Of a stretch of DNA of 44,613 nt, positions 10,424 to 38,500 are shown in pieces. How positions within the stretch are numbered: the stretch's first letter is position 1; each line of letters opens with the position of its first letter. The DNA lies in sequence record NC_027383.1; one strand, given 5' to 3'. A program made the position numbers and the translations under genes. Source of the stretch: Escherichia phage YD-2008.s. The notes beneath the pieces are model-generated. The model saw only the letters and a list, made by a program, of their open reading frames with translations. It was not told the origin of the DNA and ran no database searches.

Positions 10424-13400
10424 CTACCAACTACCTGTGATTTCACCAATCTGCACGCGGAGCACGCCGTTTCCGTCCCTAACACTGATTTGCGTGTTAG
10501 TCTGTTTCATCCCGCCGCCGTTACCGGTTCCCAGGTTGATAAACGTTCCATCTTTCCCTAAGCGCCAGCCGCGCGTGCTGCCGTCGTAGTTATTAGATTG
10601 CAGCGTGTCCGTGATCTGCGCGAAGTTGATAGTCGCGTCCTTGATGCGTGCCGTGTCAATATACACCGCGCCGCCGTCCACGATAAACGCGGACGAAAGC
10701 GACCCGTTAGATGGGTGCATGATGTAGAACTGGTCCGCCTTGAACGCGATGCGGGATTTAACCGCGCCACCTTCCGCAACAACAGAAAGCTGCATACCGG
10801 CATCGTAGTAAGTCCCTTTATACGTCACGCCAGCCTTAAGACTGTACGTGGCGCTGCCACCAGCATGGTTAAACGAGGACGTCATCTTCTGCTCGATAGC
10901 GGCGGACTGCTGACCGAACTGTGTCGCGACCTGGGTCTTATATTCCGCCAGCGCTCCCGCCACGTCTGCGGTTGCCGTTTGTACCTGCTGGATGGCGGCT
11001 TCCTGTTCCCCGAACTTAGCGGCGACAGTTTGCTGATACTGGGCGAACGCTTGTTCCTGTGTGCTCTGTGCGGTCTGCAACGTGTGGATCGCCGCTTCCG
11101 CGTCATCAAGTCGCGTGCCGATCAACGTCTCCAGTTGAGCTACCGCCTTGTGGGCGTCCGCCGCCACGTTATACGCGACCGAGATTTCCGCATAAATACC
11201 CTTGTACTCGGCGCGGGCGTTGAACAATTGCTGCGCATCGGTGAGCATCGCCTCGTAAATACCCTGCGGGATCGTGTTGATTGCTTCCTGGAAGCGTTTA
11301 CCATCCTCGGAAGTCAAGAACTCGTCATCAAGCCCCTTCATGTACTCGTCAACTTTGTCACTCACCTGCCCCTCAAACGGGGCCGACCAGTCCGACAGGT
11401 TGCCGATTTTATCCGCTACGCGTGCGCGCAACTGCTGGTATATGCCGAACTCAAGCGACGTTTGCGCGTACTCCGCGCCAGGATATGGGACGTTTGTTAA
11501 GAATTTCCATTCCGTTTCGCCCGTCTTGCGGACTTCAAGCTCGGTGTAAGAGATATCCGTCGCAGCGTTGTTGTGGTTCCACTTCCACAAAATCTGGTGA
11601 AGGCCAGAAATCGCGTTGGTGATGATTGGTGCGTTAAGCCCACCGAGGCGACCTTCCACCGGCGTGATCGCGGAAGACACCCACGGGGACGAGATTTCGC
11701 CCATGCCAATTGCGCGGACGCGTGCCTGGTAGTTGCCGGAGAACACGTTAGGGATGTGCGCACCATTCGACGCCGTGCGCGGGATATTCACCCAGTCGTT
11801 ACCCCACTGGATTTCCATATTCTGAAGGCTGGTACGTCGCCACTGGATTTCATACACCACGGCATCTTTCACCGGCGGGAAAACAATATCCACGTTGGTG
11901 ATTAGCTGGCCTTGCGATGAAATCTGCGACGGAGTTATGGTCACGGACTCCGGCCCCTTCATTACACCGTCCGGCACTTGCGTAAAGATTCCGGGGTCAA
12001 GGCGAGCGCCATTATCAACGGCATCATATTTGCTATCGTTGTATTCAATCCCGCGCACCGAGAAAGTGCTCGTAGAGTCGTCATATTCCAGGTCGGTGAT
12101 GCGGAATTTTTGCAACTGGATATCGTCGCCATCAACGCAAAACGGTTGGTCTGGAATCGGGTCGGCATCCAGTGCGGTTTTTAGCGTGACCTTGTTGCCG
12201 TTGACGCTGGCGATCTCGCGAGTCTCGACATTTCCGCTATCGGTGCGTACCAGGAACTTATCGCCAGGGCGGAACGTGATTTCGCAGTCCGTGTTCAGTA
12301 CGGTACGCGTTCCGGGGTCTGACAACAGGCGACCGCCGCGAGTCTCGAATCCGCCAGAAATATTAGTATCTGCGATCGCAACTACGCTACCGGGGATAAA
12401 GAATAACCCCTCCATGCCAACTTTAAAGCTGACCTGCTGGTCCAACTGGTTGGATATTAGTGCCCAGTGCCCGCGGCGTTGCGCTTCAGATTCGCGCGTA
12501 CAGCCGATCGCCGTTATATCAAGACGGTTAATCTTATGGCGGCGCACCAGTTCGACGCGCTGGCCCGTCGCTATAGCGTCATCATAGTGGTTTTTCGGGT
12601 TGCCGTATGCTACCGCGAAAGTGGAGTACCGCGTTTTCTGGCTGCCAGATGCGTAGTCGAAGCGCCCATCAATAACCGATGCGTTGGTGATAGTGTGGGA
12701 CACCGCGGCTACTGGTTGGTCACTGACTATATTCAACATCTGGTTGCCCCACCAGGTCATTCCGGCAAAGATGGCAGCCAAATCCTTAAGCACGGTCCAG
12801 GCATCCGTCTGAGACTGAATGTACATATCATTCTTAAAGCGGATTTCTCGACCACCGTTGCCGTCGCTGACCAACTGATCGCAGCGCTGCGCAATCTGGT
12901 AGAGCGCGTACCGGTTTAACATTTGCGGTTTGATACGCCGACCGAGGCCGAAGCGCTCAGTAATACAAATATCGTACCAGTGCCACGCAGGGTTATCCGT
13001 CCATGCGCGTTTAAACGTGCCGTCCCAGTCCCCGGAATAGGTATGATTAATCGGGTCGTAGTTGTTCGGTATTAGAACTTTACGGCCTTTGCACTTGATG
13101 GACACGCGCGGGATGTTCTGGAACGCTTTGGCGTCGAACTCCACAAACAACAGCGCGGTTAGCGGGTAACGCAGGCGGGCGTCGATAATCTCCGTGATGG
13201 ACTGCACCCGGATATCATTAACCACTTTCGCCGATGTGGAGTCTGCCGTTATGCGGTGCACCTCCACGCGCCAGCCGGTGTTAACGTTAGGCGGTAGCTC
13301 GATGCGGTGATCTCGCTCGTACAGCGACATTGTTTTACCAACGGCAGCGAATGTAAACTCACGCGGGTCTGCGTTATCCGTATACACAACGATCTTATAG

Positions 13401-16609: not shown

Positions 16610-19252
16610 TCATCGTTTGTAAAGTACACCACCCGGTTTCGTTGCCTTCACGATCTCGGCCTTCACCGCCTCGGTGATTTGCTTGCCGAACGCCTGCGCG
16701 GTACGGGGGTCCGGCCCGCTGACACTGGTATCCGTTTTACCGGTCCCCGTGTAAACGTTAGTCGTCACGACCATCCCCCCACCTGCGCCAGACGCGGCAA
16801 CGCCCAGTTTCCCGTCCGGCCCGCGCTTCAGTGGCATGATGGCCTCGGGTCCAGCCTCACCCATCAACCCAGCGCCCTTAGCGAACGCCTGGACGCCATA
16901 ACTGAAAAAGGTAGGCTGGCTTACCACTTTCCCGGAATAGGCCGCGAGATTGCCTCCTGCGTACGCTCCGCCGTCCGCATTCTTGGTGAGGCCCGAGAAG
17001 ATAGCGCCGAACAATCCGTTTTTGCCGCCGTCGCCACCGAAAGCGCTAACGATCGACTTGAAAGCCTGCGAGGTAGCCAGCTTGATTAATTCGCTAAGGA
17101 TGGACTTAACCATATCCTTTGCGTTCAGCTTGCCCGTCTCGAAAAACTCGTTCATCGTGTCTTGCATAGCGCTGAACGTGAATTTTGTGAGCGACATCAT
17201 CTGCGTATATCCGTTACCCATATCATCCACACTATCCTTAAGCCCGCGGCTGAAGCCATCCCATAGCGAGGCGTTAGCCCCGGTCTGTGCTTCCTGCACT
17301 TCACGCAGCTTAGACACCGCCTTGTCTATATCGGTATCGTTAGCGCCAACCCTCTTCAGGCGGTCAATTAGCTGCAATTCTTCACGCAGGTTTGCCGCTT
17401 CGCGAGTGGAAAGCGCATAGCCCGCAGCGGTGGCTTTTAGCTCGGCGTTCTGGTTCTTAACGAAGGCATCGATCTGCGCATGCGCCTTAACCTGCTTCTC
17501 TTTCGCGTCCAGCAATTTGGCTTCTTCGACGATCTGCTCGCGCACTTCCTTCACGCGTCCGAATTCGACCATCTGCTGCTTTTCTGCTGCCGTTAGCGCT
17601 CTTTTTTTGCTCGCAGCAATTAACTGCTCATTGTCAGCGATCAGCTTGTTTAATGCTGCTTGAGCGCGTTGCGTGCGGGTCTGCGTAGACGCGTTGGCTT
17701 CGATCTGCTTGCCGGATTCTCGAAGCTGGGCCAGTTCGCTCCGTGCAACTTCCAGCATTTTCATACCGGCATCCACGCGAACAGCCGCGGCCTTCTTCGG
17801 GGCCGGGTCTTTGTAGCGCTCGTTGACCTGCTTCACCGCCTCGGCTAGTTCTTTCTCATCAATAACGCCGCGCTTATTCAGCAAATTGAGGCGGGCGATC
17901 TCGTCTGCACGCTTTTTCGCGTTGGTTGCGTACTCCTTCTCGAACGCAGCGCGGTCGCGGGCGGTGCGGTTAGCCTCCTCGTTCGCCTTTGCGGATTCGT
18001 CTGCGGCGCGGGCGTTGTCTCGCTCCGCACGGTTACGCAGGGTGAGCGACGCCACCACTTTTTCCTGGGCGACCAGTTCGCTGTAAAGCATGTTAATACG
18101 CGCTTTCTGCGCTTCGGTCATAACTCCACCGGCAGCGTTTACCGCTTTCATCTCGGCATAGTAAGCCGTGGTCATGCGCTGCAATGATTCACGCGCTTTC
18201 ATCTCGGACTCATTCGAGGACTGCGCGCGGCCCACATCCAGGATGGCATCCCACATCGATTTAGCTGCCGATGTGACGACGTTCATCGACCGCTCAAGCG
18301 TGCCCATGTTTGACTTGATCTCATTGGTCATGCTGGTGAACGACGCAGCGGCGGTTTTGTTAGCCAACGCAACTGCGTCTGTCTCACGACCCGCATCAAC
18401 CAGCGACTGCACCTGCTGGATCTGCGCTTCGTTTACGACGTGATACTTATCCGCCAGTGCGCGCAAGCCGCCCACGGGGTCAGTGGAGAGCTTCGCCACC
18501 GCCGCCACCACATCCTCGATCGGCTGGCTGGACACCTTCGCAAAGTCATTAACTACCTTAGCCAATGCGCCGAAGTCACCACCCGCTTTCACCCCCGCCG
18601 CCGCCAGCGCCTGGATTGTGTCACGCGTCTTGCGAAATGACCCGCCCATGCGCTCGGCGTTCTCGGACAGCACAAGGATCTGGTTAGCTGTCAGGCCTGA
18701 AATATTACCGGACAGCGCCAGCGTCTTATTAAGCGCCGCCACCTGGTTCTCTGCGCGGGTCGTAATTGCCACCCCTACGCCGAGCGTTGCCGTTAATGCC
18801 GCGATGCCGATCCCTAATGGGCCGAGTGTGCCAACGACATAACGCAGCGTGTTTCCCAGTCCGCCAAACGCCCCAGTAAGCTGCGGTAACTGCTGAAGCA
18901 TAACGCGGTGCACCGGCATACCCATCTCAAGCGTAACCGCGATATCCTGTAACTGGAATGCGGCGTTCCGCGATGCGAATCCCAGGTTTTTGGTCGACAT
19001 GCCTAATCGGCTGGCGAGTCGCTCCTGTTTCGTCATGCCGTCGGCGGCGCGCTGCGATTCAGTCGCTAACTTTTCCATTCCGCCAGCAGCGTCGCCAGTA
19101 ACCTTTTTCGACTTGCCAAGTGTGTCGTTTAATTTTTTTACTTTCTGTTCTGTGTTCTCGGATTTCTGCGCAAATGTGTCCAGCACAGTATTAGCCGTTT
19201 TAATTTGCGCGACGTCCGCCTTGAGCGTGATGCCCGCTGCCTGATCTGCCAT
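16610..19252 (-). CDS. tail tape measure protein
   Basis: 880 aa; long Ala/Gln/Lys/Glu-rich coiled-coil protein with Gly-rich C-terminus, downstream of the G/GT chaperone. Confidence 0.8.
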   Translation of the reverse strand: MADQAAGITLKADVAQIKTANTVLDTFAQKSENTEQKVKKLNDTLGKSKKVTGDAAGGMEKLATESQRAADGMTKQERLASRLGMSTKNLGFASRNAAFQLQDIAVTLEMGMPVHRVMLQQLPQLTGAFGGLGNTLRYVVGTLGPLGIGIAALTATLGVGVAITTRAENQVAALNKTLALSGNISGLTANQILVLSENAERMGGSFRKTRDTIQALAAAGVKAGGDFGALAKVVNDFAKVSSQPIEDVVAAVAKLSTDPVGGLRALADKYHVVNEAQIQQVQSLVDAGRETDAVALANKTAAASFTSMTNEIKSNMGTLERSMNVVTSAAKSMWDAILDVGRAQSSNESEMKARESLQRMTTAYYAEMKAVNAAGGVMTEAQKARINMLYSELVAQEKVVASLTLRNRAERDNARAADESAKANEEANRTARDRAAFEKEYATNAKKRADEIARLNLLNKRGVIDEKELAEAVKQVNERYKDPAPKKAAAVRVDAGMKMLEVARSELAQLRESGKQIEANASTQTRTQRAQAALNKLIADNEQLIAASKKRALTAAEKQQMVEFGRVKEVREQIVEEAKLLDAKEKQVKAHAQIDAFVKNQNAELKATAAGYALSTREAANLREELQLIDRLKRVGANDTDIDKAVSKLREVQEAQTGANASLWDGFSRGLKDSVDDMGNGYTQMMSLTKFTFSAMQDTMNEFFETGKLNAKDMVKSILSELIKLATSQAFKSIVSAFGGDGGKNGLFGAIFSGLTKNADGGAYAGGNLAAYSGKVVSQPTFFSYGVQAFAKGAGLMGEAGPEAIMPLKRGPDGKLGVAASGAGGGMVVTTNVYTGTGKTDTSVSGPDPRTAQAFGKQITEAVKAEIVKATKPGGVLYKR

Positions 19253-19267
19253 TATGCAGTCCCCCTT

Positions 19268-19650
19268 TTTATGCAGTTGCCGTCGGTCATTGTATCAGCG
19301 AATTTAAAACAAACCTTATTCAGTCTCAGACGAGGGGGGCCATTGACCCCCGTCTAGTCTGAAAGACTGGGCTTTGTCCCGCCTGTCCCGATCGGCTAAA
19401 ACCCGCGGCAGCACTGGCTGGGACAGGGGTGCTGTCCCGCTTTGTCCCGCCCAATTCTGCCCCGCTTTTTGTCCCGTTTGTTTTATGCAGAAAAACCGCA
19501 TAGCCATTCACTTTTGAGGGGTGGGACAGATCGGGACAGCACCCCCGTCCCGCTTTTAGTTTATGCAATGAAAGTGAGTATATATGCGGTTTAATGGTGG
19601 CGGGACAAAACGGGACGTCCCGCCTGTCCCGCTTCGTTATGCGGGGTTCT
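19268..19650. repeat. iteron-rich structured noncoding element A
   Basis: ~380 bp without a credible ORF; at least 12 GTCCCGC/GCGGGAC heptamers; hairpin AGACGAGGGGG...CCCCCGTCT; palindromes GGGACAGGGGTGCTGTCCC and CGGGACGTCCCG; core 19307..19480 is homologous to 35962..36135. Confidence 0.6.
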
Positions 19651-20313
19651 GCCGCGCCATTTCATCCAGCGCAACGCGTTCCATTAGCTTGATATCTTTA
19701 AACGCGCGTTGCGCGTTTTCGATGCCGTGCATCTTAAATAACCATTCCAGCACGCCGTAGTCGATGCCGTATGCGCCACCGAATCCGGTGCGCCATTGCG
19801 TGGAGCAATCTGTGAAGACTGCGACTACCTTCGCATTGTCGGGCCATAGTGCAACCGGGGGGCAAACGTCTTCAGGGGTCGCCCCCCATAAACTCGCGGC
19901 TAAATCTTCGGAGGGTGGCGGCGGGCCATAAAAGCGTCGCGCCGCCTCAATTAGTTTTTTTCACGCAATCCCATCAGTTCGAGATAGTACGACGTATGGA
20001 ACACGCCGAACGCGCGCGGGTAGTTGACCACCAGGCGGCGGACGTTCTCCGCGTTAAATTCGTCCGGCAGATTCCAGCCTTCTGCGACGTGCATGATGGC
20101 CTCGACCATAACGTTAAAGCCGTCCGGATCATTGTCGTCATACTCCGACAACTTGCGCTCAGTATCCTGCATGGTCTGCGAAAACTCGTCAATCGGACGG
20201 TGGCGCACGGTAAACGTCATTTTGCCTGGTTCGTTCTCACCAGGGCGCGGGATCTCAATCGGCAGCTTAAAGGTCGGTTTAGGGTCTAGTGTGAAGAGTG
20301 GTGATTTAGCCAT
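19637..20313 (-). CDS. tail assembly chaperone GT fusion via -1 programmed ribosomal frameshift
   Basis: Canonical slippery heptamer A AAA AAC (minus strand, 19960-19954) at the end of G; the -1 frame stays open for ~106 codons to TAA at 19637-19639. Confidence 0.55.
19951..20313 (-). CDS. tail assembly chaperone G
   Basis: 120 aa from ATG 20313 (GGAGAA RBS); ends ...LREKN at a slippery site. Confidence 0.65.
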   Translation of the reverse strand: MAKSPLFTLDPKPTFKLPIEIPRPGENEPGKMTFTVRHRPIDEFSQTMQDTERKLSEYDDNDPDGFNVMVEAIMHVAEGWNLPDEFNAENVRRLVVNYPRAFGVFHTSYYLELMGLREKN

Positions 20314-20335
20314 TATATAATTCTCCAATAAAAAA

Positions 20336-20352
20336 GGGGCCGTACTGGCCCC
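20336..20352 (-). terminator. intrinsic terminator after the major tail protein gene
   Basis: Minus strand GGGGCC agtac GGCCCC followed by TTTTTTATT. Confidence 0.6.
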
Positions 20353-20382
20353 ATATTAACACCCGCTATTTAAGCGACCAAA

Positions 20383-21108
20383 TTACGACAGCGCCTCGAC
20401 CAAGTCCTTACGGTAAATAACCATATCGGACTGCATAGTGAGGGTGGACTCCACCGTCTCCACGTTGTTTACTTCAGCCGACGGAATCTTGCGGAAAGAC
20501 ACCTTAGCCGGGTAAATGCGGATTTCACCTTTGCCGCTTGCCGCTGCCGGGTTAGTGAACTTAATCACAGTGGTTTTCTGTGTGTCGTCCAGGTCTTCCA
20601 GAATCGGGCGGATCGGGTCTTCTTCGTCGTGGGTGAAAGTGTAGGTCTGGACCAACGGGTTTTTCGTGGTGTTCAGACTGATCGCGGTATTCACCTGCAA
20701 CGGCTGGAAGGTGGTGGTCTGCTGGTCGCCACCCGACACGGCAACGTTAGTGATAAACGGGAAGTCGATAAAGCTCGACACCTTCACGACCTCACCCGGT
20801 GTGCCTACGCCGAAAGCACCGGTCGGGTATTTGGTGGCGTCTTGAGTATCGAAGCGCGCCAGCGTCACGTCGTTCCCGGACACTTTACCCACGATGAACG
20901 CGCGGTTCAGCGCACGGACCCACGGGGTTTTAGTGAACATAACAACGTCGCCAACAACCAGACCGTGAGACTCCGCGCAGGTAATTACGCAACCTTGCGT
21001 AAGGTCGGAGATCGACGCAGCGGCGTTGGTAGCTGCCGTAACCGCGATACCATTGCCTAGTACGGACCCGATCTGGACGCTGGACCCGTTAGGAAGTTGA
21101 TAACCCAT
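20383..21108 (-). CDS. major tail protein
   Basis: 241 aa; sits between neck genes and the G/GT chaperone; followed by a terminator. Confidence 0.65.
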   Translation of the reverse strand: MGYQLPNGSSVQIGSVLGNGIAVTAATNAAASISDLTQGCVITCAESHGLVVGDVVMFTKTPWVRALNRAFIVGKVSGNDVTLARFDTQDATKYPTGAFGVGTPGEVVKVSSFIDFPFITNVAVSGGDQQTTTFQPLQVNTAISLNTTKNPLVQTYTFTHDEEDPIRPILEDLDDTQKTTVIKFTNPAAASGKGEIRIYPAKVSFRKIPSAEVNNVETVESTLTMQSDMVIYRKDLVEALS

Positions 21109-35961: not shown

Positions 35962-36135
35962 TTATGCAGTCTCAGACGAGGGGGTGACAGACCCCCCGTC
36001 TAGTCTGAAAGACTGGGGTGCTGTCCCGCTGTCCCGCTCCTCGCCAGGCCGCGTCATCCGGGGCGGGACAGGGGTGCTGTCCCGCTTTGTCCCGCCTCCT
36101 GTTTGTCCCGCTTTTTGTCCCGCTTACTTTATGCA
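35962..36135. repeat. iteron-rich structured noncoding element B (homologue of 19307..19480)
   Basis: Same hairpin stem AGACGAGGGGG/CCCCCGTCT with a different loop; GGGACAGGGGTGCTGTCCCGCTTTGTCCCGCC shared block; about 7 GTCCCGC copies; bounded by TTATGCAG on both sides; AT-rich stretch follows. Confidence 0.6.
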
Positions 36136-36229
36136 GTTTTATTGCATAACTATTCATTATATTTACATTACACGGCAACCAATGCGACTAACTAAAAACA
36201 CGCAAAACGGCAACCAATGCGCGCAAAAT

Positions 36230-38500
36230 TTAATCTTTCAGGTCATCATCGGTCGCCGAAAGCGTAATGGGGATACCCGATTTGATAACTAAATTCGACG
36301 ACCCATAGATGGCCCCGGTGTGCGGATCTGTATAGAAACCAATCACGCCGCGCTCTACCATATCGTCAATTGCCTTCGTCGATGTGCCACCTTTCGCGAG
36401 TCCCGCCTGGCGGACGATTGCCGATTTGCTGAATCCGGTATGGTCCGGGTTATCTTCCATCAGCTTCTCCAGTGCTGCATAAAGCACTTTCTCTTTTTCG
36501 GTGCGCGGTCCGGCGGTGTTCTCTTCCTTAACTGCGGCTTTTCCTGCGGCCTTCGCCTGTTCTATAGCGAACGGTGCCAGGGCGACCGGTACGAGGTATA
36601 AAGTCTCGTCGCGCGGGGTGGACGCAATTGGTTTGACGTCCCAACCGGCAACTACGTCTCCGAAGTCCGGACCGGTGCTGGTGGACTGGTGCGACGCGAA
36701 CGCTTCTGACTTGCGGAGATCTATCGCCACCTTGCACTTGAGCAGGACGAAGCCACGCGGCGCTTGCTTGATGCCGTTACGTGATTTTTCGTGGTACAGG
36801 TTAAGTTGTCCCGGCTGGTTGTCGTCCGGCTGTTCCAGGAAGAAAGCGGAATCGACAGCGCCATGAAGCGCACCGGACCCGCGCGGGGATCTGCTGCCGT
36901 TTGCACCCTTCGCCGGGTGGTGGATGACGCCCGCACTGCCACCTGTATTTTCCGCAATGGCTTTCAGCGCTTTGACCACTTCACCCATATCGCTGGCGTT
37001 GTTCTCGTCAAACGGTTTAGCCTCGGCGGACCGCAGCGCAACAGTCTGGTTGAGTGAGTCGAACGCCACCAGGCCAACCGGTTCGCCGTTAGCGGTGCGG
37101 TTGATAAAGCTGATAACTTCGCGCAAGCCTGATTTGCTGGTGATATCCCAGCCGCGTGACTGCAGGTCTATAATGTGCAGCTTGTCCAGGTCGTGCTCAT
37201 ATTTAATCTGCAATGCTTCTTTACGCTGGTTGGAGGCTTCGCCACCTTCCGCGTCGAAATAGAAGCAATGAGACTGGACGACCTTCGCACCGCCGAACGG
37301 AATACCCGCGGCAACCGCACCCATCTGCCCCAGCACATAGAATGACTTGCCTATGTTCGACTCACCCGCCATGTACCAGGTCGATTTGAAGTTAATCAGA
37401 CCTTCGATGATCGGGTCGTGCTTACTGAATAGTGCGACCGGCTCGTTATCCAGGTCCGCATCGGTGCACACGCCGTATTCTTCGCCGTCTCCAACCGCAT
37501 CAACAATATGCTCATATAAGGATTCGACTTCCTCGTCGTCCAGCCCTGGAAGGATGGCGGCGATTTGCTTACGGGACATATTGTGTGGCTCGACGTTCAG
37601 GTGGTCCGGGATCCCGATAAGACGTAGCGCCAGGTGCTGGTGTCTATTCAGTTCCGAGCAACACTCGTTGCCGGTGTGCATACACTTGAAACGGATCTCG
37701 CCATCCTTAACCATGATAGCCGTCGACCCTTCGCCGCTGTGCAGATGTTCGTTCGGGCACGGCACTTCATAACCGCGACCGGAAGATAACTCCTCGAATC
37801 CTGCCTGGAAGCACCAGTCCAGAATACCGTCTGCCACTGCGTCGTCGCCCTGGGTAAGCTCGCGGCGTACTTCCTCTTTTTCCACCCCCAGCTTATCCGC
37901 CAGGCGGAGCAGACGCCGCACATTGGCACGTTTGCCGTAGTGGCACTTAATAACTGACTGCTGGTGTGGCAGGTACATCAGGCGGTTTGTGTCTTTCGTG
38001 CAATCGTCGAAGTCCACATCTGACAGACCAAGTTGGTGTAATAGCGCATACTGGACACGGCCCAGGTCTTCAGCCGGGACAGGCTTGTCAGTGAGTACCA
38101 GGAATCGAGCGCAACGCGTGCCGCCTTTCAGTGGGTGACGGTCGCCGGTGGTTGTGTGAAAAACGTGTTCAAGACCCGCGTCGATGAAAGCCTTACGGCA
38201 GCGGCGCAAGGTGCGAGTGTCGGTGCGGTCGATATCGAAGAACAGGATCGAGCGGTCCACCGCACTGGTCTTGCGGCGAAGGCCGTCACTGGTATATGCC
38301 ACGATGCCATCGGCCTTACGCTTGCGGCGCGCATACTCGGCTTTATCTTCCGTCTTATTGATATGCACCGAGGAGATTTCTTTCGCATCTTTGATAAATT
38401 CGAAAAATTCATCGGTGGTCATCTGGAAGTTTTCCGCCCTGGCTTTTTCGCCTTTTTTAGCGGGTCTTGTTACGGCGAATTTAATTAAACTCATGGTCAT
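36230..38500 (-). CDS. DNA primase/helicase (primase domain + P-loop NTPase)
   Basis: 756 aa; Walker A AGESNIGKS and Walker B-like VGLVAFDS in the central region; size and layout of phage primase-helicases. Confidence 0.75.
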   Translation of the reverse strand: MTMSLIKFAVTRPAKKGEKARAENFQMTTDEFFEFIKDAKEISSVHINKTEDKAEYARRKRKADGIVAYTSDGLRRKTSAVDRSILFFDIDRTDTRTLRRCRKAFIDAGLEHVFHTTTGDRHPLKGGTRCARFLVLTDKPVPAEDLGRVQYALLHQLGLSDVDFDDCTKDTNRLMYLPHQQSVIKCHYGKRANVRRLLRLADKLGVEKEEVRRELTQGDDAVADGILDWCFQAGFEELSSGRGYEVPCPNEHLHSGEGSTAIMVKDGEIRFKCMHTGNECCSELNRHQHLALRLIGIPDHLNVEPHNMSRKQIAAILPGLDDEEVESLYEHIVDAVGDGEEYGVCTDADLDNEPVALFSKHDPIIEGLINFKSTWYMAGESNIGKSFYVLGQMGAVAAGIPFGGAKVVQSHCFYFDAEGGEASNQRKEALQIKYEHDLDKLHIIDLQSRGWDITSKSGLREVISFINRTANGEPVGLVAFDSLNQTVALRSAEAKPFDENNASDMGEVVKALKAIAENTGGSAGVIHHPAKGANGSRSPRGSGALHGAVDSAFFLEQPDDNQPGQLNLYHEKSRNGIKQAPRGFVLLKCKVAIDLRKSEAFASHQSTSTGPDFGDVVAGWDVKPIASTPRDETLYLVPVALAPFAIEQAKAAGKAAVKEENTAGPRTEKEKVLYAALEKLMEDNPDHTGFSKSAIVRQAGLAKGGTSTKAIDDMVERGVIGFYTDPHTGAIYGSSNLVIKSGIPITLSATDDDLKD

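Follow-up and report, generated by a model that had tools for sequence, protein, structure and literature searches.

Introduction

The window analysed here is the whole of a 44,613-nt stretch of DNA from Escherichia phage YD-2008.s (sequence record NC_027383.1). Within it a short gene, located between the tail tube gene and the tape measure gene, ends on A_AAA_AAC, and an open reading frame continues past its stop codon in the -1 register. The locus raises the question of whether this second frame is expressed and, if it is, whether it is joined to the upstream gene. A preliminary description of the DNA had proposed that the two frames, G and T, form a G/GT pair of tail assembly chaperones in which the longer product arises by programmed frameshifting. 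We have examined the proposal by comparing the locus with its relatives, by searching for protein families and RNA structure, and by weighing the other ways in which such an arrangement might come about.

Results

Gene G and the T segment lie between the tube and tape measure genes

Comparison of the 1.1-kb region around the locus with phage records gave 157 matches at 80–99% DNA identity. Nearly all of these belong to Dhillonvirus siphophages of Escherichia or Shigella, among them HK578, JL1, SSL-2009a and EP23. All four frames are on the minus strand, G and T following the tube gene and preceding the tape measure gene, and the gene order in HK578 is identical. The features of the locus are collected in Table 1.

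Table 1. Features of the G/T locus, in positions of the window.
Feature	Position	Strand	Remarks
Major tail (tube) gene	21108-20383	minus	
Shine-Dalgarno sequence GGAG of G	20323..20326	minus	9 nt 5' of the G start; direct sequence reading: ttGGAGaattatataATG
Gene G	19951..20313	minus	Tail assembly chaperone, 120 aa, 14.0 kDa, product of standard translation; ATG 20313-20311
TGA in the -1 frame	19961..19963	minus	Abuts the 5' side of the heptamer; cgTGAaaaaaac
Slippery heptamer A_AAA_AAC	19954..19960	minus	X_XXY_YYZ phase of the G frame; codons Lys119 and Asn120
Stop codon TAA of G	19951..19953	minus	Abuts the heptamer directly
Probable stimulatory hairpin	19917..19946	minus	7-bp stem, all G:C; 16-nt loop; starts 7 nt past the heptamer
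T segment	19637..19954	minus	-1 frame, 105 sense codons and TAA; C-terminal DUF1799 domain of the predicted GT
Predicted GT fusion	19637..20313	minus	225 aa, 25.6 kDa; junction ...GLREKN–LIEAARR...
Terminator-like palindrome	19607..19622	minus	CGGGACGTCCCG, then TTTT; 15 nt past the T stop
Non-coding gap between T and the tape measure gene	19636-19253		385 nt
Tape measure gene	19252-16610	minus	

The product of G matches the Pfam family PF08748 (Phage_TAC_4) over the full length of the profile (positions 1–124 of 124), with an E-value of 1.4e-23 and a score of 83.9 bits against a gathering threshold of 21.1, and among the PHROGs it matches phrog_569 (E 1e-40). G is annotated as a 363-nt CDS in every relative inspected. 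The translation of T matches PF08809 (DUF1799), also from one end of the profile to the other (positions 1–80 of 80; E 2.8e-21; 76 bits against a gathering threshold of 26), the domain covering T residues 23–99, and it matches phrog_680 with an E-value of 3e-31. Both halves are thereby assigned to families of the tail category.

Downstream of T the palindrome CGGGACGTCCCG doubles as unit 1 of the GCGGGACA repeat cluster. A rho-independent terminator is annotated at the equivalent position in HK578, and in the records of phage T1 and Klebsiella phage Sweeny a terminator likewise follows directly after GT. A scan of positions 19100–20400 against Rfam returned only sub-threshold chance matches to miRNA and sRNA families. 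More remotely, the conserved field of GCGGGACA repeats that separates T from the tape measure gene could provide extra control of the ratio of chaperone to tape measure protein.

The T frame lacks a usable start and evolves as a coding sequence

The sequence around the proposed shift site reads ...GGA TTG CGT GAA AAA AAC TAA TTG AGG..., in which G ends with CGT GAA AAA AAC TAA (AAC at 19956–19954). Read from C19954, the T translation begins LIEAARRFYG and ends ARQNPA at a TAA at 19639–19637. The earliest ATG, GTG or TTG in this frame is a GTG at residue 67, which is unusable as a start because initiation there would lose most of the DUF1799 domain, and no Shine-Dalgarno sequence for T was found in the A-rich stretch 5' of the ATT codon that overlaps the G stop. 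The frame is also absent from the mechanical list of open reading frames, which has a threshold of at least 40 aa. These observations bear out the preliminary description in all its coordinates and numbers. It had placed the end of the G chaperone, ...LREKN, on A AAA AAC at 19960–19954, which is right to the base. It had noted that the -1 frame stays open for about 106 codons to 19637, which we find to be 105 sense codons and a stop; that there is no ATG of its own near the site, and the first candidate of any kind comes only at residue 67; and that the frame was missing from the list, where indeed no open reading frame of at least 40 aa is found. Its estimate of about 225 aa for the fusion agrees with our conceptual translation of 225 aa and 25.6 kDa.

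As a null model we considered how far the -1 frame stays open past the stop codons of the mechanical open reading frames in general, and 21 of the 105 extend for at least 100 codons. Long extensions of this kind are common because compact phage genomes have many overlaps of the ATGA type, and therefore the openness of a frame by itself proves little; the model was dropped as a test. What does discriminate is the lack of a start codon, together with the heptamer and the match to a domain.

In 20 distinct Dhillonvirus sequences the variable columns of the T segment are distributed 23/8/67 over codon positions 1/2/3 of the -1 frame, a periodicity that is confined to that frame, and the codon differences comprise 330 synonymous and 79 non-synonymous changes. 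The frame is kept in 157 phage records at the DNA level (80–99% identity) and in 1,152 records at the protein level, T1 and its relatives among them. Together with the domain match, these substitution patterns indicate that the T frame is translated and is under purifying selection.

The two frames overlap only across the slippery heptamer

The heptamer is invariant across 27 distinct Dhillonvirus sequences. Directly 5' of it the -1 frame is closed by TGA, and therefore both frames are open only across the heptamer itself; the overlap, bounded by TGA in the -1 frame and by TAA in the 0 frame, is no wider than these seven nucleotides. In all Dhillonvirus loci the T frame opens just two codons before the CTA with which T begins. 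This TGA at 19963–19961 is not mentioned in the preliminary description.

When G and T are joined by a -1 shift on the heptamer, the conceptual fusion recovers both Pfam domains. The single PHROG profile phrog_17368 aligns to the G half as well as to the T half, so fused versions exist among its members. A search of a protein database with the 225-aa fusion returned two G-only proteins (58% identity) and zero fusions, near-identical phage proteins evidently lying outside the reach of that search, and a sequence search of the PDB gave no solved relative.

The slippery site is conserved among relatives that differ in its sequence

To compare the site over greater distances we used 44 IMG/VR loci that encode relatives of T, of which 43 could be sorted into three groups. 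The Dhillonvirus group, with T identities of 88–100%, ends G with CGT GAA AAA AAC TAA. A second group, with T identities of 43–45%, ends it with CGG GAA AAA AAC followed by TAA or TGA, and in a third, with identities of 36–41%, the end is CTG GGA AAC followed by TGA or TAA, which provides the heptamer G_GGA_AAC. All 43 of these loci have T in the -1 frame relative to G, with a slippery heptamer abutting the G stop. The remaining locus (L048), a match of 36 residues, falls outside the three groups, and no slippery site was found there. The same arrangement is seen in 20 metagenome loci and in T1-like loci. A_AAA_AAC itself recurs in phage T1 and in Aeromonas phage pAEv1818, and some Drexlerviridae have GCA AAG GTC TAA or GCA AAA GTT TAA at the site. 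Between the groups the X of the heptamer changes from A to G and yet the site stays slippery, as would be expected of a site at which tRNAs re-pair.

A constrained hairpin follows the heptamer

The preliminary description had suggested looking for a downstream RNA structure that might stimulate the shift. A candidate was found: a hairpin with an all-G:C stem, beginning 7 nt past the heptamer, in which GGCGGCG (19946–19940) pairs with CGCCGCC (19923–19917). The fold of positions 19953–19915 has a predicted energy of -17.1 kcal/mol (z -2.45), and 4 of 200 shuffled sequences are as stable. When a longer stretch of 103 nt downstream is folded the overall z is -0.65, which is not significant, so that it is the local 39-nt hairpin alone that stands out. 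The 7-nt spacer falls within the 5–9 nt expected between heptamer and stable structure in -1 frameshifting cassettes of the dnaX and IS3 type.

By investigating the pattern of synonymous variation in 27 distinct Dhillonvirus sequences we found that this part of the locus is unusually constrained. Over G and T together 67% of the third codon positions are variable, whereas a single third position varies in the stretch of 16 codons that begins at CGT, four codons ahead of the G stop, and closes with the 3' arm. This stretch, which spans the heptamer, the spacer and the hairpin, is the least variable at synonymous sites anywhere in G and T; the binomial probability corrected for the number of stretches is about 1e-4, and none of 20,000 permutations reaches it (P < 5e-5). 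Variation restarts right upstream of CGT and at the first base past the 3' arm. Both arms are invariant in the 27 sequences, and a stem without variation in the genus offers no compensatory covariation. The arms encode Ala and Pro-Pro residues that are conserved, so their conservation is partly driven by the protein.

T1-like phages have a hairpin at the identical spacing of 7 nt (GGCGGTTT/AAACCGCC). The core GGCGG/CCGCC is common to both lineages, and the distal pairs of the stem are TTT:AAA in the T1-like phages as against GCG:CGC here. No hairpin at the canonical spacing was predicted in the 45% group, in the 36–41% group or in Rtp-like phages; hairpins about 27 nt downstream in the distant groups were set aside as too far away to act as stimulators. 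A stimulator of the Shine-Dalgarno type upstream of the site was also considered. No conserved motif was found there and the 12 nt upstream (ATG GGN YTG) vary freely at third positions, on which ground it was rejected. On balance we regard the hairpin as a probable stimulator of the frameshift.

The predicted frameshift is missing from Dhillonvirus annotations

Ten of the 157 Dhillonvirus records were inspected for their annotation (JL1, Kenya-K19, Zumzum, HK578, EP23, Opt212, Haito_Bas83, L-h 1M, CS16 and JLBYU60), and none of the ten carries a joined G-T CDS. The claim that the frameshift is unannotated therefore holds not only for the present phage but, to judge from these records, for the genus. 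One record, NC_073086.1, contains N residues and has a feature table offset from its sequence, and was counted solely for the absence of a join. In the inspected records T is omitted, or appears as fragments of 31–76 aa labelled 'hypothetical protein' or 'DUF1799 domain-containing protein', or is started at ATT, as in HK578. G often bears the wrong name, 'tail length tape measure protein', which derives from PHROG names. The absence of joins from tail chaperone annotations is a known and common gap (PMC10885494). In the literature we found no account of the frameshift in Dhillonvirus or HK578, nor any detection of the GT protein in this phage or another Dhillonvirus.

Discussion

The arrangement of G and T, with its predicted frameshift, is supported by sequence at every point at which a conserved tail chaperone frameshift can be tested in silico. 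The preliminary description had called it the classic G/GT arrangement, and position, frame, the missing start, the in-phase heptamer, the protein families, their conservation and the precedent of T1 all fit that name. We think it very probable that a single start codon gives rise to two products here through -1 programmed ribosomal frameshifting, by tandem slippage on A_AAA_AAC. Most ribosomes starting at the ATG at 20313 would read 120 codons and stop at the TAA at 19953–19951, giving G. A minority would slip one base back on the heptamer, with tRNA-Lys on AAA and tRNA-Asn on AAC re-pairing to AAA and AAA, and would then read CTA ATT GAG... for a further 105 codons to yield GT, the C-terminal part of which would be the DUF1799 'T' domain. 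The GC-rich hairpin probably holds ribosomes back as they cross the slippery site, so that more of them slip. As for the purpose of the two proteins, we infer from the analogy with lambda (PMC5009743) that many copies of G would coat the tape measure protein, while the rare GT would bind it through its G part and bring in tail tube protein by way of its T part; by the same analogy neither G nor GT would be expected to end up in the virion.

In E. coli A_AAA_AAC is much less prone to shifting than A_AAA_AAG, and in lambda G and GT are made at a ratio of about 30:1 that matters for tail assembly (PMC5009743). The yield of GT may be low given so weak a heptamer, which is compatible with the lambda ratio; since a small ratio of GT to G is what is needed, the weak heptamer would suit.

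A fusion of the same kind could also be made without a slip by the ribosome, if RNA polymerase were to add an extra A within the run of seven (19961–19955), though we consider it quite unlikely that this is the main route. Some of the mRNAs would then read GAA AAA AAA CTA..., with G and T in one frame and a junction of ...REKK-LIE... A ribosomal slip confined to the P site would produce the EKK junction as well. Slippage of transcription at homopolymer runs is well established as a source of such products (reviewed in PMC5009743), and the seven As occur in the 45% group and in T1 as well as at the site itself. However, the 36–41% relatives keep the arrangement with G_GGA_AAC, which offers only three A. 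Since sites poor in A are retained, it is the X_XXY_YYZ phase that is conserved and not the length of the run. The Drexlerviridae sites GCA AAG GTC TAA and GCA AAA GTT TAA, like G_GGA_AAC, can support re-pairing of tRNAs but not slippage of the polymerase. For efficient slippage bacterial RNA polymerase needs runs of about nine or more. A constrained 3' hairpin at a spacing of 7 nt, moreover, fits a ribosomal mechanism, and we infer that the shift is made by the ribosome; transcriptional slippage may make a small contribution to the fusion.

Less likely still is that T is an independent gene, begun from a non-canonical start or by termination and reinitiation at the G stop, for instance at the ATT that overlaps TAA, and expressed as a free protein of about 104 aa with no fusion. 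The HK578 record could be read in this way, as it starts gp16 at record position 10795, on the final base of the G stop, so that ATT becomes the first codon, and other records annotate short internal open reading frames in the T frame. Against this stand the lack of any ATG, GTG or TTG before residue 67 and of a Shine-Dalgarno sequence before the ATT, a codon that is not conserved as a start, being ATA in the 45% group and AGA in the 36–41% group. All three main groups, on the other hand, conserve the slippery heptamer and the -1 phase, the annotated products of 31–76 aa would truncate the DUF1799 domain, and the homologous T1 and Sweeny records annotate a fusion. Of the readings considered, the one to which we give least credence is that the open frame is a chance occurrence or a decaying remnant without a product, leaving G as the sole chaperone. 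Long -1 extensions are, as noted above, frequent in a genome as compact as this (21 of 105 extend for at least 100 codons), but chance would not be expected to produce a match to the whole of the DUF1799 profile, nor third-position periodicity with a 330:79 ratio of synonymous to non-synonymous changes, which marks purifying selection, nor a frame retained in 157 records in DNA and 1,152 in protein. Purifying selection on T together with the full-length domain match led us to exclude it.

Frameshifting by the ribosome is thus the reading we prefer, and its main value lies in annotation: one added joined CDS would correct the whole genus. Dhillonviruses are used in studies of phage therapy and of defence systems, so a complete list of their proteins is useful. 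Because the site is also unusually well delimited, with a candidate hairpin stimulator under synonymous constraint, it lends itself as a natural test of the tuning of a weak A_AAA_AAC in E. coli. More tentatively, the Dhillonvirus/T1 site may represent a compact, delimited cassette, made up of UGA in the -1 frame, A_AAA_AAC, UAA in the 0 frame, a 7-nt spacer and a GC hairpin, in which the hairpin is a genuine, lineage-specific stimulator that sets the ratio of GT to G. Were this so, structured stimulators, and not the slippery sequence alone, would be a tunable part of G/GT frameshifting in phages.

Comparison with known systems

The heptamer has a precedent in the same host. In E. coli the insA-insB' genes of IS1 are proven to shift by -1 on A_AAA_AAC, a motif of low efficiency (PMC4066793; PMC5009743), and the two systems share the heptamer, the small amount of fusion, which is predicted here, and a reduced synonymous variability (PMC4066793). 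They differ in that the proteins are unrelated and serve another purpose, in IS1 the dosage of transposase, and in that no stimulator has been established for IS1.

Among tail chaperones the closest parallel is phage T1, whose tape measure chaperones are AAP49960.1 and the frameshift product AAP50000.2. The GenBank record of T1 has a joined CDS, j2, described as 'tape measure chaperone, frameshift product'; a join of the same kind is given in the record of Klebsiella phage Sweeny, and the paper on Citrobacter phage Stevie mentions one (PMC4319613). In a tblastn comparison GT is 38.5% identical to T1 over residues 7–223 (96% of its length), the match falling in two frames. The two phages have the same gene order, A_AAA_AAC followed directly by TAA (GCA AAA AAC TAA in T1), a hairpin 7 nt 3' of the heptamer and a terminator right after T. 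T1, however, belongs to a different genus and shows only about 38% identity. Its tape measure gene comes after about 40 nt at most, where the present phage has a repeat-rich gap of 385 nt; its -1 frame is open well 5' of the heptamer, whereas here it is closed immediately by TGA; and its record has the join that the Dhillonvirus records lack. Judged by homology, the present site is the ortholog of one that is already accepted in a neighbouring phage family.

The logic of the system is that of lambda G/GT (Levin, Hendrix & Casjens 1993; Xu, Hendrix & Duda 2004, 2013, 2014; all as cited in PMC5009743). In both cases two open reading frames lie between the major tail and tape measure genes, and a fusion of low abundance results from a -1 shift on an X_XXY_YYZ heptamer close to where G ends, the chaperones being absent from virions; for the present phage GT and its fate are predictions. 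The lambda heptamer is G_GGA_AAG. No dependence of the lambda site on a simple 3' hairpin is known, whereas here one is probably used. No similarity to the lambda G and T families was found, as PF08748 and PF08809 were the only families to match G, T or GT at E ≤ 1. In predicted function and in layout the locus is therefore that of lambda G/GT, whereas its sequence families, Phage_TAC_4 and DUF1799, are those of T1 and not those of lambda. It is a new and unannotated member of a very well-known G/GT system, a gap in annotation and otherwise ordinary biology, and the points that are mildly new are only the tight delimitation by TGA and TAA and the constrained hairpin that it has in common with T1.

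Annotation of the chaperone region in relatives

The 120-aa tail assembly chaperone (G) is named 'tail length tape measure protein' in several RefSeq and GenBank records with PHROG-style names, a label inherited from phrog_569 and phrog_680, the families matched by G and by the -1-frame DUF1799 segment (T) respectively. Annotation is odd in several relatives (L001, L003, L049, L051 and L004). In the last of these, phage HK578 (NC_019724.1), gp16 (10795-11109) is annotated from the final base of the stop codon of G, which makes ATT its first codon. In the RefSeq record of Escherichia phage vB_EcoS_L-h 1M (NC_073086.1), some bases of T are given as N, and the feature table is shifted against the sequence: the CDS labelled 'major tail protein' translates to the sequence of the G chaperone.

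Shift sites and downstream hairpins

The slippery heptamer is absent at the homologous position in some T1-family phages (Drexlerviridae, among L103-L107 and L053), in some of which it is replaced by GCA AAG GTC TAA. In Klebsiella phage Sweeny GCA AAA GTT TAA stands in its place, yet the join is annotated. The sequence of these sites suggests that a single tRNA may slip on A_AAG or A_AAA instead of a tandem slip. In the IMG/VR loci L019-L047, where T is 45% or 36-41% identical to that of the window, strong hairpins are seen approximately 27-28 nt 3' of the heptamer, in contrast to the canonical spacing of 5-9 nt.

Non-coding elements flanking G and T

Just upstream of the ribosome-binding site of G there is a terminator-like hairpin, and a terminator is annotated at the equivalent place in the CS16 record. 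Because of the hairpin, the genes for the chaperone and the tape measure protein are probably expressed at a lower level than the abundant tube protein.

T and the tape measure gene are separated by a non-coding gap of 385 nt, which is unusual. The window has 19 copies of the motif GCGGGAC(A), compared with an expectation of 9.0 ± 3.1; two clusters account for 15 of the 19. The copies in the gap build long imperfect inverted repeats, in one of which the arms are 88% complementary. This cluster is kept in nearly all of the Dhillonvirus loci fetched, with 5-9 copies mostly oriented along the direction of transcription. Candidate roles for the repeats are as terminators or attenuators, as binding sites for a regulator, or as iterons. 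T1 differs in being without such a gap, its tape measure gene beginning approximately 40 nt past the fusion of G and T.

Repeat clusters and hairpins in the window
Feature	Position	Strand	Location
GCGGGAC(A) cluster, 7 copies	19253-19636		gap separating T from tape measure gene
Inverted repeat, 33-nt arms	19420-19452 and 19519-19551		within the same gap
Terminator-like hairpin GGGGCCAGTACGGCCCC, then TTTTTT	20336-20352	-	between tail tube gene and G
GCGGGAC(A) cluster, 8 copies	36023-36406		downstream of 756-aa helicase-primase ORF
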